Source of the DNA: Escherichia coli
Lineage (GTDB): Bacteria; Pseudomonadota; Gammaproteobacteria; Enterobacterales; Enterobacteriaceae
DNA length: 6,386 nt
Reading direction: 5' to 3' (one strand)
Assembly: GCF_003334305.1 (NCBI RefSeq)
Contig: NZ_QOWS01000049.1
Of this stretch, positions 63 to 6,386 are shown in pieces. A program made the position numbers and the translations under genes. Position 1 is the stretch's first letter; each line of letters opens with the position of its first letter. Under the pieces are notes generated by a model. The model was not told the origin of the DNA and made no database searches. It saw nothing but the letters and a program-made list of their open reading frames with translations.

Positions 63-77
63 GTTGGAGTCATTACC
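1..77 (+). mobile_element. IS1 insertion sequence, right end only (element continues upstream of the window)
   Basis: Nt 1-77 match, from my memory of IS1, the last ~77 bp of the element in canonical orientation (AATCGGTGGAGCTGCATGACAAAGTCATCGGGCATTATCTGAACATAAAACACTATCAATAAGTTGGAGTCATTACC), ending with the right terminal inverted repeat at 55-77. Not verified by search. Confidence 0.85.
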
Positions 78-735
78 GTGCACGGTAACGGGCCATATCA
101 ATGAGCAGTTCCTCTCCAATTTTATTTGCCCCTAGAGAGCGGCGAGTTTTCTTCACTTCAATGACAATCTTCTCTTTCTTCAGAAGAAAATCCTGTCTGG
201 ATGATGAACCTGCGAAGCTAGGTGAATTTTCTTCAGGTCTGACATCATTAAAATGCAGCAGCAGAAGAGCATGAACAAGATCCTGTACATCATACTCGTC
301 ATTAATTTCAAGCGGCGTTCTGTCATTGTATCGTTGCTTTAATTGACGACAAAAAGCTGGAAATTTATTGAGTATATTTATAATCAAATCCAGTTCGGCA
401 TGTTTTGTTGCTATAGTCGATGCCGTGCCGGAGTAAGTTAAATCGTCTCTGGCTGCATCAAAAATAGGTTTGTAATGTCTAACCAATCCCTGATAATTAC
501 TAGACCAAGCAATCCTTTGTGTATCATTAAAATCTTTGTAGTAATCAGATTCCTTTCCATAACTGTCTTCAAGTAACTTTTTTGCTCTTGCAATCCAGTT
601 ATTACCTTTAGCCGAATCAATATATTCCTGGCTTCTGTGACTAAATGCACTTGTTCCCATATATTTTGTCGACATGACAGAATTGTACTCTTGTTCAAGC
701 ACTTCAAATCTTTCAGCTAAGGTCTTCTTCGTCAT
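73..735 (-). CDS. Hypothetical protein with a C-terminal PD-(D/E)xK-like nuclease motif; 3' end created by the IS1 junction, so probably truncated
   Basis: ORF track frame 73..747 (-). Position 747 is a TTG; the first ATG is at 735 (MTKKTLAERFE...), giving about 220 aa. The C-terminal region reads EYDVQDLVHALLLLHF ... SSSRQDFLLKKEKIVIEVKK: an acidic helix, a D in a hydrophobic strand, then E-V-K 11 residues later, the arrangement expected for a PD-(D/E)xK core (motif-level inference only). The last sense codon and the TAA stop (73-75) overlap the IS1 terminus, which ends at 77. Confidence 0.55.
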   Translation of the reverse strand: MTKKTLAERFEVLEQEYNSVMSTKYMGTSAFSHRSQEYIDSAKGNNWIARAKKLLEDSYGKESDYYKDFNDTQRIAWSSNYQGLVRHYKPIFDAARDDLTYSGTASTIATKHAELDLIINILNKFPAFCRQLKQRYNDRTPLEINDEYDVQDLVHALLLLHFNDVRPEENSPSFAGSSSRQDFLLKKEKIVIEVKKTRRSLGANKIGEELLIDMARYRAR

Positions 736-811
736 AGCGCAATCCAAATTATATGCTAATAATACCTGTGAATTTTAATATTCTACCATATCTGGCTTTC
801 TTCCGTTCACA

Positions 812-1174: not shown

Positions 1175-1654
1175 CTACTGGCTTGCTGTGCCAAACTTTC
1201 CGTTGCAGATTTCCTCATTCACAATGGCCTGAAACATGGAAACAGAATTTCTAGCCTTATCCCTCAGTGCATTAATGAGTTCTGTGTCGTGTATTTTGTT
1301 GTAGAAAATGAAAGTAGAAACATCAAACTGGAGTTTAAATGCTGCTTTCCTTATGGCTAAACCTGACGTGATCGTTATCTCATTATGTATGCGAAGATAG
1401 GCAAGATAATCATCGTTATTTGCTTCACACTGCTCATATAAATATTTTTGCATGAGAGATTGAGACAAGGCCAGAAATTCCACATATCGTTTGGTTTTTA
1501 TTTCTTTATCTTTTAATCCCTGTACTGCCGCTTCTTTTTTTAATTCGTGCTTTTGTGTTAGCTTAAGAGTCAGCCACCCCCCTAAAATAGTCAGCAACGA
1601 CCCCAAACCTATTTTTACGGCATTATCAGCCACATCCACCCACTCAGTCGCCAT
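1175..1654 (-). CDS. Hypothetical protein with an N-terminal membrane anchor (159 aa)
   Basis: ORF track frame. It has one N-terminal hydrophobic helix (VKIGLGSLLTILGGWLTLKL) followed by a charged, probably helical soluble region. No family recognised. Confidence 0.5.
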   Translation of the reverse strand: MATEWVDVADNAVKIGLGSLLTILGGWLTLKLTQKHELKKEAAVQGLKDKEIKTKRYVEFLALSQSLMQKYLYEQCEANNDDYLAYLRIHNEITITSGLAIRKAAFKLQFDVSTFIFYNKIHDTELINALRDKARNSVSMFQAIVNEEICNGKFGTASQ

Positions 1655-1771: not shown

Positions 1772-2221
1772 ATGGTTAAATTTCCAGGTGAAGTTATGAG
1801 TTCGTCCGCTGCTGTAACCGTTATAACTGGTGTTCTTGTTTTTGTTGGTGGTCAGCTCATTGTAAAGAGCGCGATTGAACCTTATATAGAATTCAAGAAA
1901 CAATTGGGAAAAATATCAAATCTGCTATTAGCTAACCAAGCTAAATTAGCTAATCCTTGTGCTGTTGAAATGTCTGAGATCATCCATGAGTTGAAAGATG
2001 CCGCAGCTCAGTTAATGTCGAAGCATTCAGCTTTGCCTTTCTATATCAAAAAATTCCATATCGGATTCCGCTTTGTTCCATCAACGCCTGAAATTATTAG
2101 TTCGGCGCAAAAATTGAATTTGATAGCATCAATACATGAAGGTAAAAGCAAGGAAAGTACATATGAGCACATAGCCGAGATTGGACGTATGCTCAAAATC
2201 CCAACCACCTATTCTCTTTAA
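1772..2221 (+). CDS. Hypothetical protein with an N-terminal membrane anchor (149 aa)
   Basis: ORF track frame. It has an N-terminal hydrophobic helix (AAVTVITGVLVFVGGQLIV) and a soluble C-terminal region. An alternative start at the ATG at 1796 is preceded by AGGTGA. It is followed by the bidirectional terminator at 2278-2304. Confidence 0.5.
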   Translation: MVKFPGEVMSSSAAVTVITGVLVFVGGQLIVKSAIEPYIEFKKQLGKISNLLLANQAKLANPCAVEMSEIIHELKDAAAQLMSKHSALPFYIKKFHIGFRFVPSTPEIISSAQKLNLIASIHEGKSKESTYEHIAEIGRMLKIPTTYSL

Positions 2222-2258: not shown

Positions 2259-2284
2259 CTGGACATTCAGGTAAAAAAGTCCAA
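2259..2284. repeat. Dyad-symmetric motif copy 3 (CTGGACATTCAGGTAAAAAAGTCCAA), fused to the terminator stem
   Basis: TGGAC (2260-2264) / GTCCA (2279-2283). The right half-site is also the 5' arm of the terminator hairpin at 2278-2304. Confidence 0.55.
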
Positions 2285-2358
2285 CTGGTGAGGTTGGGCT
2301 TTTTGGCTTTCCGGTTCTGTTGGTGGCTATGACCGGAGAAAATTGCTCTACACCTAAC
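2273..2358 (-). ncRNA. Candidate small RNA, orphan paralog of the antisense RNA at 4727..4814
   Basis: Homologous to 4727-4814 along its length: the same terminator architecture, the same internal hairpin (TCCGGT ... ACCGGA), and a conserved -10 (TAAAAT on the minus strand, plus-strand 2365-2370). The predicted 5' seed is different (GUAGAGCAAUUUUCUCC versus GUAGAGUGACUUCCUCC). No adjacent toxin gene, and no target found in the window. Confidence 0.4.
2278..2304. terminator. Bidirectional rho-independent terminator (A-tract / 8-bp stem / 7-nt loop / T-tract)
   Basis: AGTCCAAC (2278-2285) pairs with GTTGGGCT (2293-2300), with one G-U pair. The loop is TGGTGAG. A5 lies upstream and T5 downstream, so it reads as stem plus U-tract on both strands. 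It serves the 1772..2221 ORF on the plus strand and the sRNA candidate on the minus strand. Confidence 0.6.
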
Positions 2359-2429: not shown

Positions 2430-2798
2430 GGGGGGAAGATAGAGCAACTCACCGATGATGAATAAAGTGGACGAAGAGACGATAACTACACTCCCATCCA
2501 GGGGGGGGCTTTTTTTGTGGTACTGTAGTGTGGGAGTAAGTTCGGGTCTCATATTGAATGAGGCGATTGCGAGCTGCCTTTCATCGAAAACTAATGTCCA
2601 TTGTCATTGTATTGTCTGACTCTATCTCGTAACAAGTCTTTGACACAAAGTTTTATATTTTTATCAAAGTGGACATGAGGGGAATTAAATTTGTGATCTT
2701 TTTCAAATAATGTGTTCTTGATAGTAGATTCTGGTTAGTGATATCTATTAACAATATATTAAATTTCTTTTGTATTATCGCTGATAAAACTACTGTAT

Positions 2799-2807
2799 TG
2801 GTATACT
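2799..2807 (+). promoter_or_regulatory. Candidate extended -10 promoter (TGgTATACT) for the 500-aa ORF
   Basis: TG at 2799-2800 and TATACT at 2802-2807, inside a very AT-rich ~280-bp upstream region. A second candidate is TTGACA at 2640-2645. The ribosome-binding site AGGAG is at 2825-2829, 8 nt before the ATG at 2838. Confidence 0.4.
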
Positions 2808-2837
2808 ATATATTATTGAGTAACAGGAGATATCACT

Positions 2838-4340
2838 ATGAAGAAATTTTATCAATTTAGGGATGAACAGCGAAAGGAGCTTGAACAACATGATTTTTAT
2901 AGTTTGATTTCTTCAGATTGTATAGCGTTGAAAGACAAACTATTATTTGCTCCTGTTATGGCTCATTTCATAATGAACTTCAGAGACATGAATAAATGGG
3001 TTATCAGGTTTGATAACAATGATAATGAATATAAATCTGTTATAAACGGTGGAACAATCGAGGATGAAACACATTCAAGATTGTTTCTGGAAGACTGGAG
3101 GAAACTATATATAGATGACAAACTTAACTGGAAAGCAAGTGATGTTATATACTGGTTGTTTATTAGTCGAGAAATGGAGTGTTTCCGAAAATTTGGTATT
3201 GATTTTATGAGACTTTGTGTAGATGATGGAGGAGACCCAATACTTCGATATTCTCACTCCGAGTCAGGAGAAACTTGCGGTAATATATTCTTTTCAAGAA
3301 TTAGTCCTATTGCTGATCAAGTTGCCAATCATTTGGGAATATCACTCCGTTATTTTGGAACATTTCACCTTAATCTTGAAAATGGACATGTATGGAAGTC
3401 AGAAGGTGTTTTTGAAAATATAGAGTTGTCACCAGATTCTTATAAGAAAATGGCTACTCTATCAAAGAGAATGTTTGATATATTTGAAGGAATTCATGAC
3501 TCTTTTTATAATTACCTGTCCAGTTATGTTCTTAATGGAAGTCATCCGTCATTTTTTGAATCATTACCTGTAGGGAAAAATGTTGCACCTATATACCCTG
3601 AATTTGTGATAGAAAACAAAAGCCATAACGATGGTAGACATATTGAACATATAAACAATTACCTGGAAAAAATATCGAGTCATGAGTTCTTTAAATGGCT
3701 GGTTAACACCTCAATAGACCCTCAATTGAAATTGAAAAGTTTCATACCTCTTTGGATTGTTGATATTATGGGGTATAGAGATATTAATAAATATGTTTTT
3801 ACATATGAACAGCCTGAATCAGAAAGTGAAAAGATTATAAATGATTATGCATTACACTTGTCAGAGCATAGCCGTTTATTTTATCATGACTGGAAGTCAC
3901 TTCAACTTGATGATATGTTACGTTGGAGTGCCAGTGATACTCTTGAGTTTATTTTTCTTAATTCAGATATGGATATGCATAGAGAAAATATAGTTAAGTT
4001 TTCTTTGTTCGGATTAAAACACAGAGATCCTGTTATCAGGTTCTGGTTTATGATGATACTGGAGTTAAGTGGAAAAGAATTTTTCTCTCATGTTGGAGAT
4101 ATAGCTTTACAGGTGGAAAGTAAATATAATATTTATCTCCCATATTTATGTGGACGCCATGCAACAGAAAATGAGCATGAAGCATATAATAATATGTATG
4201 AGCATTTTATGGTAAAGGAACTTAGCCCTGAACAAAGTGATCTAATAATACAAATTACAGACATGGTTATGCGGTCATTATTGAATAATTTGGATATCTC
4301 ATATCGATATGTAGTAAATAATTTATTGGCAGCTCGTTAG
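2838..4340 (+). CDS. Hypothetical 500-aa protein made of two homologous ~220-aa halves; function unknown
   Basis: Long ORF with a strong AGGAG Shine-Dalgarno site, its own AT-rich promoter region and its own terminator. The two halves share ETHSRLFLEDWRKLYIDDKLNWKASD versus EHSRLFYHDWKSLQLDDMLRWSASD, FRDMNKWV versus YRDINKYV, and a later ELSP motif. No signal peptide or TM helix is apparent. Codon usage is strongly AT-biased compared with the flanking sequence. Confidence 0.8.
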   Translation: MKKFYQFRDEQRKELEQHDFYSLISSDCIALKDKLLFAPVMAHFIMNFRDMNKWVIRFDNNDNEYKSVINGGTIEDETHSRLFLEDWRKLYIDDKLNWKASDVIYWLFISREMECFRKFGIDFMRLCVDDGGDPILRYSHSESGETCGNIFFSRISPIADQVANHLGISLRYFGTFHLNLENGHVWKSEGVFENIELSPDSYKKMATLSKRMFDIFEGIHDSFYNYLSSYVLNGSHPSFFESLPVGKNVAPIYPEFVIENKSHNDGRHIEHINNYLEKISSHEFFKWLVNTSIDPQLKLKSFIPLWIVDIMGYRDINKYVFTYEQPESESEKIINDYALHLSEHSRLFYHDWKSLQLDDMLRWSASDTLEFIFLNSDMDMHRENIVKFSLFGLKHRDPVIRFWFMMILELSGKEFFSHVGDIALQVESKYNIYLPYLCGRHATENEHEAYNNMYEHFMVKELSPEQSDLIIQITDMVMRSLLNNLDISYRYVVNNLLAAR

Positions 4341-4374
4341 AAGAACAGCATTGGTATGACTCTGATGCTCCTTA

Positions 4375-4404
4375 AAATCCCACTTTTCAGAGTGGGATTT
4401 GTTT
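4375..4404 (+). terminator. Rho-independent terminator of the 500-aa ORF
   Basis: Perfect 10-bp stem AAATCCCACT (4375-4384) / AGTGGGATTT (4391-4400), loop TTTCAG, followed by GTTTAAT. It lies 35 nt after the TAG stop at 4338-4340. Confidence 0.65.
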
Positions 4405-4645: not shown

Positions 4646-4726
4646 CATCGACCGCAACAAAAAAACTGAAAGAGAAAGCCCCTCAAATGAGGGAGAAAAA
4701 AAGGAAGTGCAGTCAACGAGAGGCGT

Positions 4727-4814
4727 AAAAAACCCGACTGGTGAGGTCGGGTTTTAATACGGTTCCGGTTCTGAGTTGGTGGCTCTGACCGGAGGAAGTC
4801 ACTCTACACCTAAC
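4727..4814 (-). ncRNA. Candidate antisense small RNA (type I antitoxin-like), divergent from the 31-aa peptide gene
   Basis: Minus-strand promoter: TTGCAA (4844-4849), 17-bp spacer, TAAAAT (plus-strand 4821-4826). The predicted start is near 4814. The terminator is stem CCCGAC (4733-4738) / GTCGGG (4746-4751) with loop TGGTGAG and a U6 run on the minus strand. The first 24 nt (complement of 4791-4814) pair with plus-strand 5026-5049 in the peptide mRNA leader (23 Watson-Crick pairs plus one G-U). Confidence 0.5.
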
Positions 4815-5125: not shown

Positions 5126-5221
5126 ATGATTAATCTGTTAATCATCGTTCTCAGGGCTGTGGTCGCCGTTGCAAACGCGCTGATTGCAATTCTGGAACTG
5201 ATTCGCCAGTTCATCGACTGA
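5126..5221 (+). CDS. 31-aa hydrophobic peptide, type I toxin-like (MINLLIIVLRAVVAVANALIAILELIRQFID)
   Basis: ATG at 5126 with GGAG 6 nt upstream. An in-frame stop lies upstream at 5096-5098, so this is the first possible start. The peptide has one predicted TM helix and a charged C-terminus. A near-identical paralog is at 6044..6139. It is not in the ORF track, which lists only the antisense frame 4909..5214. Confidence 0.6.
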   Translation: MINLLIIVLRAVVAVANALIAILELIRQFID

Positions 5222-5446
5222 TGACAGCGGAAACGTAACTAAGGACAGGAAGTGAACCGCTTCCTGCCCTTTAACATACTGTGATATTTTTCAAAAAAAC
5301 TCACCAATATTCTCCTCGGCAGAAATGACATAACTCACTGTAAAATAACAAATCATCTAAACGCCAGCTTTGTATTGAGCGCGTTGGCCAACGCCTTTAT
5401 CAGCTGCGACCGCACCAGATAATTTGAATAAGATTTCCCGCATCAC

Positions 5447-5472
5447 CTGGACATACAGGTTATTCTGTCCAT
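5447..5472. repeat. Dyad-symmetric motif copy 4 (CTGGACATACAGGTTATTCTGTCCAT)
   Basis: TGGACA (5449-5454) / TGTCCA (5466-5471), with an inner dyad ACCTG ... CAGGT. It lies in the spacer between the two peptide units. Confidence 0.6.
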
Positions 5473-6043: not shown

Positions 6044-6139
6044 ATGATTAACCTGTTAATCATCATTCTCAGGGATGTGGTCGCCGTTGCAAACGCGCGG
6101 ATTGCAGTTCTGGAACTGATTCGCCAGTTCATCGTTTGA
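6044..6139 (+). CDS. Second copy of the 31-aa peptide (MINLLIIILRDVVAVANARIAVLELIRQFIV), possibly degenerate
   Basis: ATG at 6044 with a weaker ribosome-binding site (AAGAG). It differs from copy 1 at 7 nt (V8I, A11D, L19R, I22V, D31V, one synonymous), and two of these put charged residues in the hydrophobic core. It lacks the sRNA, promoter and leader block present upstream of copy 1. Confidence 0.45.
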   Translation: MINLLIIILRDVVAVANARIAVLELIRQFIV

Positions 6140-6309: not shown

Positions 6310-6386
6310 GGTGATGCTGCCAACTTACTGATTTAGTGTATGATGGTGTTTTTGAGGTGCTCCAGTGGCTTCTGTTTCTATCAGCT
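6310..6386 (+). mobile_element. IS1 insertion sequence, left end (element continues beyond the window)
   Basis: GGTGATGCTGCCAACTTACTGATTTAGTGTATGATGGTGTTTTTGAGGTGCTCCAGTGGCTTCTGTTTCTATCAGCT matches the IS1 left inverted repeat and the insA 5' region as I recall them. It is in the same orientation as the IS1 fragment at 1-77. Confidence 0.9.
6365..6386 (+). CDS. insA: IS1 InsA, N-terminal fragment (GTG start; continues beyond the window)
   Basis: GTG GCT TCT GTT TCT ATC AGC translates to (M)ASVSIS, the InsA N-terminus as I recall it. Confidence 0.7.

Follow-up and report, generated by a model that had tools for sequence, protein, structure and literature searches.

What does a solitary AT-rich gene on a virulence plasmid of Escherichia coli encode, when its product is labelled 'hypothetical protein' in every database record listed? 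The gene in question lies in a stretch of 6,386 nucleotides of E. coli DNA (RefSeq assembly GCF_003334305.1, contig NZ_QOWS01000049.1), called here the window, which is identical to a segment of pECOS88 (pS88), a plasmid of E. coli S88, a strain from neonatal meningitis. In pS88 the window is placed between the iron/manganese transporter genes sitABCD on one side and the partition genes sopAB on the other. The open reading frame (ORF) 2838..4340 (+) encodes a protein of 500 amino acids (aa), WP_000715081.1 (ECS88_RS00155). A first-pass annotation of the sequence described the protein as an internal tandem duplication that could not be placed in a known family. Our analysis does place it: both a search of PDB sequences and structural matches assign it to the heme-oxygenase-like di-metal oxidases (HDOs), and within these to the AetD branch. 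We consider it likely that the gene encodes two fused AetD-type HDO domains, that is, a di-iron, O2-dependent oxidase of tryptophan or a related amino acid joined to an asymmetric partner domain.

Results

Two AetD-type domains are fused in one polypeptide

The tandem duplication passes self-comparison. Residues 1–271 and 272–500 align in BLASTP with E=3e-25 (32% identity over 173 aa), and both halves independently match the same solved protein, AetD. In the PDB sequence search AetD was the sole protein matched, with E=3e-18 for the N half and E=1e-5 for the C half, and a profile of the C domain again found only AetD (E=7e-20). The start methionine of the 500-aa protein aligns with Met1 of AetD. 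No model of Pfam, NCBIfam, PADLOC or PHROGs matches the protein. Among the motifs said to be shared by the halves, (T/E)HSRLF-x2-DW-x2-L-x2-DD-x-L-x-W-x-ASD and ELSP are indeed present in both, whereas FRD-x-NK-x-V is not, the second half having YRD.

An all-helical repeat had been expected, and the AlphaFold2 model of the full-length protein, based on a 70-sequence alignment, confirms it: the model is all-helical with two domains (predicted local distance difference test score, pLDDT, 94.1; predicted template-modelling score, pTM, 0.93). Disorder in the linker is found around residues 250–265, and pLDDT falls below 50 at residues 255–262. When the C domain was modelled separately pLDDT was 95.5, and the top 21 Foldseek matches of this model are all AetD (TM 0.81–0.86). 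All significant structural matches of both domains are heme-oxygenase-like proteins, which share a seven-helix bundle of three core and four auxiliary helices. The encoded protein is predicted to be a soluble cytoplasmic enzyme.

The N domain holds the complete ligand set of AetD

AetD from Aetokthonos hydrillicola is a di-iron HDO, a nitrile synthase, that turns 5,7-dibromo-L-tryptophan into indole-3-carbonitrile in aetokthonotoxin biosynthesis (PMC11611611, PMC10654658). It is dimeric (PMC11611611), accepts unbrominated L-Trp with about 35% conversion (PMC10654658), and has been solved repeatedly (PDB 8JI2-8JI7, 8TWN/8TWT/8TWW). The metal ligands of AetD are D76 and H79 on core helix 1, E140 on helix 2 and H172-x3-E176-x2-H179 on helix 3. 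More specifically, D76 binds Fe2, H79 binds Fe1, E140 is an Fe2 ligand, and Y167 hydrogen-bonds the substrate carboxylate, while F48 stands where other HDOs provide an extra Glu (PMC11611611, PMC10654658). Since auxiliary helix 2 of AetD carries F48 and not Glu, Fe1 is free for chelation by the amine and carboxylate of the substrate. A related enzyme, SktA from Nostoc punctiforme, is a di-iron HDO skatole synthase that converts bromotryptophan to bromoskatole and cyanide (PMC11869266 for cyanide release).

The N domain of the pS88 protein holds all AetD equivalents: D76, H79, E145, H177, E181, H184, Y172 and F48. The same six ligand positions are occupied, and D76 and H79 even share the AetD numbering. 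Further points of likeness are the HX3EX2H pattern of core helix 3, the H-H-E order of Fe1 ligands, the carboxylate-binding Tyr, the aromatic pocket, and Phe instead of Glu at position 48 of auxiliary helix 2, which would leave Fe1 open for N,O-chelation by the substrate. In an alignment of 70 proteins, with homologs down to 20% identity, each of the six ligands is kept in 58–68 sequences (83–97%), Y172 in all 70 and F48 in 66. Single-domain AetD-like proteins, which served as a control in a joint alignment, keep all six ligands as well. The suggestion that conserved E, H and D residues mark a metal-binding or enzymatic site was partly right. H79, in the THSRLF motif, and the preceding D76 are the equivalents of AetD Fe1 and Fe2 ligands; the acidic residues of DW, DD and ASD are not ligands, and the four further ligands E145, H177, E181 and H184 had been missed.

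Positions equivalent to the indole pocket of AetD are aromatic and conserved in the N domain (F44, F151, F152, F213 and F216). Ser214, which contacts the C7 bromine in AetD, is replaced by Phe, as in SktA (PMC13108848). Very probably the N domain is a di-iron oxidase with an amino acid as its substrate, and our best guess is that this amino acid is tryptophan or a derivative.

The C domain has lost the Fe2 site

The two halves are homologous, but they are not equivalent. When domains are aligned jointly, all 35 C domains have Leu at the position of D76, as do 67/70 sequences of the 70-protein alignment (L341 here). At the bridging-Glu position C domains mostly have His, the equivalent of H179 is variable, and D309 occupies the position of F44. 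Of the motif of three His and three carboxylates on core helices 1–3, the C domain retains only H344, E409 and H441. These are equivalent to H79, E140 and H172 of AetD, and they are retained in 67, 64 and 65 of the 70 sequences, respectively; Y436, the equivalent of Y167, is retained in 69 and R440 in 66. As the two Fe2-only ligands are missing, the C domain cannot build the Fe2 site of AetD; the Fe1-type half-site is kept. The residue pattern suggests two possibilities for the C domain: it may stand in for the second subunit of an AetD-like dimer, or it may be a module that has a mononuclear site or binds a ligand.

An ancient duplication under purifying selection

C domains form one clade, and single-domain proteins form another. 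Mean identities are 0.43 between N domains, 0.41 between C domains, 0.27 between N and C domains, 0.27 between N domains and single-domain proteins, and 0.20 between C domains and single-domain proteins. The monophyly of C domains points to a single ancient duplication followed by C-domain divergence. The ratio of nonsynonymous to synonymous substitution rates (dN/dS) of the whole coding sequence (CDS) against the orthologs of Yersinia and Salmonella (S. arizonae) is 0.06–0.16, which means purifying selection. Among pS88, Yersinia similis and S. arizonae, dN/dS is about 0.1 in the N domain, 0.10–0.20 in the C domain and 0.5–0.6 in the linker, with synonymous sites saturated in some pairs. Despite its divergence the C domain is as constrained as the N domain. 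Two proteins consisting of a C domain only (P0136 and P0144) were considered as natural split genes, which would have spoken for a heterodimer, and rejected: they start 146 and 11 bases from contig ends and are thus truncated calls.

Distribution and mobility

The AetD-like family, single- and two-domain forms taken together, comprises 324 clusters at 50% identity in 1.84 billion proteins. Two-domain members are rare: a set of about 100,000 species genomes contains 29 loci. They occur in Yersinia, Salmonella, Piscirickettsia, Comamonas, Acidovorax, Salinisphaera, Sorangium and Polyangium, and in mycobacteria, Pseudonocardiales, Streptomyces, Actinomadura and Amycolatopsis. Of 5426 complete E. 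coli genomes 265 carry the gene; 265 of its 270 places are plasmid-borne, and most copies are more than 99% identical. In PLSDB 288 plasmids carry it (265 from Escherichia, 22 from Salmonella and one from Shigella), 259 of them conjugative.

Horizontal acquisition, proposed on account of base composition, is supported. The guanine plus cytosine (GC) content of the ORF, which was found exactly as it had been called, is 32.4%, compared with 41.0% on the left and 44.5% on the right of the region. The copy of Yersinia similis is likewise a solitary AT-rich islet (33–36% GC vs 50–54% in the flanks), and in Piscirickettsia it lies between insertion sequence (IS) elements, both on a plasmid and in the chromosome. 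Together with its plasmid location in E. coli this supports the view that in this species it is a lone, horizontally acquired AT-rich gene on conjugative F-type virulence plasmids.

The entire IS1-bounded window is common to 49 genomes only. On the 40-kb non-ColV plasmid pTA150-2 a block consisting of a 159-aa ORF, a 149-aa ORF, the HDO gene and dqlB recurs without IS1 or sit genes, and therefore the IS1 pair is not the mobile unit. The two small ORFs that accompany the HDO gene there, 1175-1654 (-) and 1772-2221 (+) in the window, have hydrophobic N termini. The 149-aa ORF matches PHROG 7512, a group of unknown function (E=4e-60); PADLOC and NCBIfam gave no match for either ORF.

Genomic context in distant relatives

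Neighbouring genes were compared by tblastn with the called neighbour proteins. At 18 of 35 loci a cytochrome P450 gene is no more than a few kb away. This gene lies directly downstream of the HDO gene in Comamonas and Acidovorax, in the order HDO-P450-MFS, and in two metagenome-assembled genomes. Six actinomycete loci (three of Amycolatopsis, including two A. orientalis assemblies, two of Actinomadura and one of Streptomyces triculaminicus) have the HDO gene divergent from genes for P450, DUF6875 and an O-methyltransferase, and at five of these six a gene for an S-adenosylmethionine-dependent methyltransferase is present too. It has been shown that DUF6875 ('cytochrome P422') hydroxylates free L-tryptophan at N1, C6 or C7 and that O-methylation can come next (bioRxiv 10.64898/2025.12.11.692455; PMC13307353). 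The neighbourhood of a DUF6875 tryptophan hydroxylase thus gives independent contextual support for tryptophan-derived substrates, beside the homology to AetD and SktA and the pocket residues.

Two further arrangements were seen in actinobacteria. In Amycolatopsis orientalis a second two-domain HDO paralog of 488 aa, 33% identical to the query, is located directly downstream of the first (locus L005, 9520-10986). This paralog is more degenerate: its N domain is without the last His and its C domain without equivalents of H344, E409 and H441. At nine loci from mycobacteria and one Pseudonocardia the HDO gene adjoins a gene for a PAS-GGDEF-EAL (cyclic-di-GMP) protein, an adjacency that may be mere shared synteny among related species.

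Expression signals

The ORF at 2838..4340 is a real gene and probably a single-gene transcription unit. The strong ribosome-binding site (RBS) reported for it is there, AGGAG at 2825-2829, 8 nt ahead of the ATG. It was also credited with its own AT-rich promoter region and a clean terminator, and for both the case is weaker. AT-richness of the upstream region is real (30.6% GC at 2560-2837). The promoter itself is less clear: a scan for consensus sigma-70 promoters found no site on the + strand of this region, the only candidate extended -10 is a single match, TGGTATACT at 2799-2807, and an alignment of the upstream DNA across enterobacterial copies has no conserved footprint, homology beginning at the ATG (the Yersinia and S. 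arizonae copies differ upstream). Downstream, the strong 11-bp hairpin at 4375-4400 is followed by a weak U-tract, GUUUAAU, that fails the T-run criterion of the terminator scan; segment 4341-4420 folds with -25.3 kcal/mol (z=-3.08). A dedicated promoter and a clean terminator for the HDO gene are plausible. The terminator-like site upstream, at 2491-2508 (+), separates the gene from the preceding ORF and supports an own transcription unit.

No Fur box was found at up to three mismatches anywhere in the window; a Fur-like run around 3011-3030, inside the ORF, was rejected as it falls short of the Fur-box criterion. Transcript data exist for pS88030, which we mapped to the HDO ORF by gene order and by the rule (RS tag / 5) - 1, checked at five anchors (iucA, shiF, enolase, sitD and sitA). 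Its transcript is detectable in lysogeny broth; the level changed 0.30x when an iron chelator was added, 0.46x in serum and 0.32x in urine, and no change was significant (PMC3438092). With no Fur box and no rise of pS88030 under iron depletion, the HDO gene stands outside the iron-starvation regulon of its neighbours. In this it differs from the Fur-regulated iron-acquisition accessory genes of ColV plasmids.

Other features of the window

Features are listed in Table 1. The Rfam AgrB matches score 46 and 64 bits (gathering score 40). The AgrB-like element at 4725-4813 (-) is located upstream of the first dqlB gene (5126-5221). No toxin gene follows the element at 2271-2357 (-), which directly precedes the AT-rich segment with the HDO gene; it looks as though this gene were embedded in a dql/agrB repeat array. 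For the second dqlB gene (6044-6139) no AgrB match above threshold was found. An annotated hypothetical ORF of 55 aa (WP_000638861.1, 4590-4757 (+)) overlaps the AgrB-like RNA region on the opposite strand, has no family match and may not be a real gene.

Table 1. Coordinates of the features discussed, as positions in the window
Feature	Position	Strand	Basis or remark
IS1 ends	1-77 and 6310-6386		Bound the window
AgrB-like antisense RNA genes	2271-2357 and 4725-4813	-	Rfam AgrB (dinQ antisense RNA) matches
Terminator-like hairpin (2491-2508) with T-run to 2515	2491..2515	+	Terminator scan
AT-rich upstream region	2560..2837	+	30.6% GC; candidate extended -10 and RBS
CDS, two-domain AetD-family HDO protein, 500 aa	2838..4340	+	WP_000715081.1 = ECS88_RS00155 = pS88030
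N-terminal HDO domain, residues 1-245	2838..3572	+	Full AetD-type di-iron ligand set
Codons D76-E-T-H79, core helix 1 ligands	3063..3074	+	Alignment to AetD; codons read from sequence
Codon E145 = AetD E140 (Fe2 ligand, core helix 2)	3270..3272	+	Alignment
Codons Y172...H177-x3-E181-x2-H184, carboxylate Tyr and core helix 3 HX3EX2H	3351..3389	+	Alignment; AetD 172-HX3EX2H-179, Y167 (PMC11611611)
Interdomain linker, residues about 246-270	3573..3647	+	Predicted disordered, fast-evolving
C-terminal HDO domain, residues 271-500	3648..4337	+	AetD-fold paralog; Fe2 site dismantled, Fe1-type residues kept
11-bp hairpin, probable non-canonical intrinsic terminator	4375..4400	+	35 nt past stop codon
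dqlB type I toxin genes	5126-5221 and 6044-6139		Both downstream of the HDO gene

At the left end lies a 224-aa ORF, 73-747 (-), whose annotation is that of a PD-(D/E)XK nuclease pseudogene. With E=4e-23 it matches the PADLOC model Aga_Helical-REase of an Argonaute-associated nuclease, and as the IS1 end at 1-77 truncates it, it is a defence-gene remnant. A family of 39-nt direct repeats is found at 1133-1171, 2245-2283 and 5433-5471 (core CACCTGGACA..CAGG; 64–77% identity to the reference copy). Each copy is directly downstream of a gene or toxin unit, and the repeats could be terminators or recombination sites. In addition, a short tandem repeat, (GCCTTTAAC) x4, occupies 2395-2430, with the orphan AgrB-like element on one side and the terminator-like hairpin (2491-2508) on the other.

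Discussion

Our results suggest the following mechanism. The N domain would assemble a carboxylate- and histidine-ligated di-iron cofactor on D76, H79, E145, H177, E181 and H184. An alpha-amino acid, most likely tryptophan or a close derivative, would chelate Fe1 by its amine and carboxylate. Y172 would form a hydrogen bond to the carboxylate, and the side chain would lie in the aromatic pocket. O2 would be activated by the N domain, and the amino-acid moiety would be oxidatively cleaved or rearranged, as it is by AetD and SktA. The C domain is an ancient paralog that has no second iron site and has kept the Fe1-type half-site and a conserved pocket. Most likely it serves as a permanently attached counterpart of the partner protomer in the homodimer of AetD, possibly with a single-metal or ligand-binding role.

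Several observations weigh against this explanation. Identity to AetD is just 18–24%, and H184, present in 58 of the 70 homologs, is less conserved than the other ligands. The second-sphere residues are G144 and C147, as compared to M139/A142 in AetD and T139/T142 in SktA (PMC13108848). It is important to note that HDOs sharing one ligand set differ widely in the reactions they catalyse, so that substrate and product cannot be read from homology. P450 and P422 genes are absent from the neighbourhood of the copies in E. coli, Salmonella, Yersinia, Piscirickettsia and Polyangium, which means that the argument from context is borrowed from distant homologs. Expression of pS88030 is not raised in iron-depleted medium, serum or urine, and this gives no tie to the adjacent iron-uptake loci. 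Finally, it is from homology, fold, residue conservation, selection and distribution that we infer metal binding, catalysis, substrate, product and the packing of the two domains.

Could the C domain be a second catalyst? The protein would then be a bifunctional enzyme in which a di-iron N domain and a C domain with mononuclear iron at Fe1 carry out two successive oxidations of one substrate. There is precedent for such a domain, as FlcD and HamA have likewise lost the Fe2 site and kept a Fe1-type His/His/carboxylate site (PMC11363339, PMC12522199), and a catalytic role of the C domain is possible because both are mononuclear-iron enzymes with the Fe1 site only; in FlcD the alpha-2 Glu is paired to an Arg (PMC11363339), and HamA is a second mononuclear HDO (PMC12522199). 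The C domain keeps the Fe1-type residues H344 and H441, His or Glu at the bridging position, E409, the carboxylate-binding Y436 (69/70) and the conserved R440, its pocket-lining positions are 85–97% conserved, and its dN/dS is 0.1–0.2. However, the ligand pattern of FlcD, with Glu and His on alpha-1 and His on alpha-3, differs from that of the C domain. The half-site itself also varies, alpha-3 of the E. coli clade being HATENEH against a family consensus of RHxxxH, and a structural interface or a regulatory ligand site would explain the conservation of the C domain equally well. We regard two successive oxidations by one protein as unlikely.

That the protein is not an oxidase at all seems very unlikely to us. 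The fold is common to the metal-free TenA and PqqC, which are among the weaker structural matches, but no Pfam model of TenA or PqqC matches the protein, and conservation of the six di-iron ligands in the N domain would be unexpected without a metal site. The first-pass annotation had proposed a cargo or effector gene of unknown type, and in this spirit the gene could act as an anti-phage, abortive-infection or competition effector in a defence islet, for example by releasing a toxic small molecule such as cyanide. On one side it has the Argonaute-associated nuclease remnant that IS1 truncates, on the other type I toxin-antitoxin loci, namely two dqlB toxin genes and AgrB-like antisense RNAs; it is solitary and mobile in enterobacteria and Piscirickettsia, and the homolog SktA releases cyanide (PMC11869266). 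Yet no defence (PADLOC) or phage (PHROG) model supports such a role, the co-travelling block of pTA150-2 is without recognised defence genes, and contexts in other phyla look biosynthetic, not defensive. This makes a defence role highly improbable in our judgement; it concerns the biological role of the gene and would be compatible with the enzymatic mechanism that we favour, an AetD-type oxidase with an attached partner domain.

How does such a protein compare with known HDOs? AetD is a homodimer of subunits of about 240 aa, whereas the pS88 protein consists of two tandem, non-equivalent domains in one chain of 500 aa, and its second domain is without the Fe2 ligands. Phe at the position of S214 and G144/C147 in place of M139/A142 are further differences, and the E. 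coli gene has no halogenase, tryptophanase or P450 partner. With SktA, compared by published residues, the pS88 protein has in common the AetD-family membership, Phe at the S214 position and, if our assignment is right, a tryptophan derivative as substrate (PMC13108848); SktA differs by being a single-domain protein encoded beside a tryptophan halogenase. In SznF and other multidomain HDOs the HDO domain is also fused to a second domain in one polypeptide, but in SznF the partner is a cupin domain and not a second HDO domain (PMC13108848). In the open-access papers searched, no tandem HDO-HDO or tandem AetD-like protein is described, and there is nothing on the pS88 ORF or on HDOs in ColV plasmids.

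This naturally occurring HDO-HDO fusion, where just one of the two domains has lost the Fe2 site, offers a system for the evolution of di-iron and mono-iron sites in the HDO fold, and it could reveal what the second protomer adds in AetD-like dimers. In addition, the recurrent pairing of HDO with P450, and of HDO with P422 and an O-methyltransferase, suggests that actinomycetes, myxobacteria and Betaproteobacteria have uncharacterised pathways that make natural products from tryptophan.

For the plasmids themselves, the label 'hypothetical', carried in all records listed for hundreds of sequenced E. coli, Salmonella and E. fergusonii plasmids, can be replaced by a concrete and testable biochemical hypothesis. 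The carriers include ColV plasmids of neonatal-meningitis and avian-pathogenic strains. In the host or gut, a plasmid-encoded oxidase of tryptophan or a related amino acid could be a source of cyanide, nitriles, aldehydes or skatole-like compounds. It is conceivable, though we think it doubtful, that plasmids of extraintestinal pathogenic and avian-pathogenic E. coli (ExPEC/APEC) carry a class of tandem HDO so far unrecognised, asymmetric in that the N domain is di-iron and the C domain mononuclear or regulatory. Its substrate would be free tryptophan or some other aromatic amino acid, and its product would be bioactive, for instance an indole nitrile, an indole aldehyde, or skatole together with cyanide. 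If this is true, it would be a plasmid-encoded small-molecule output of these pathogens that has never been looked for.

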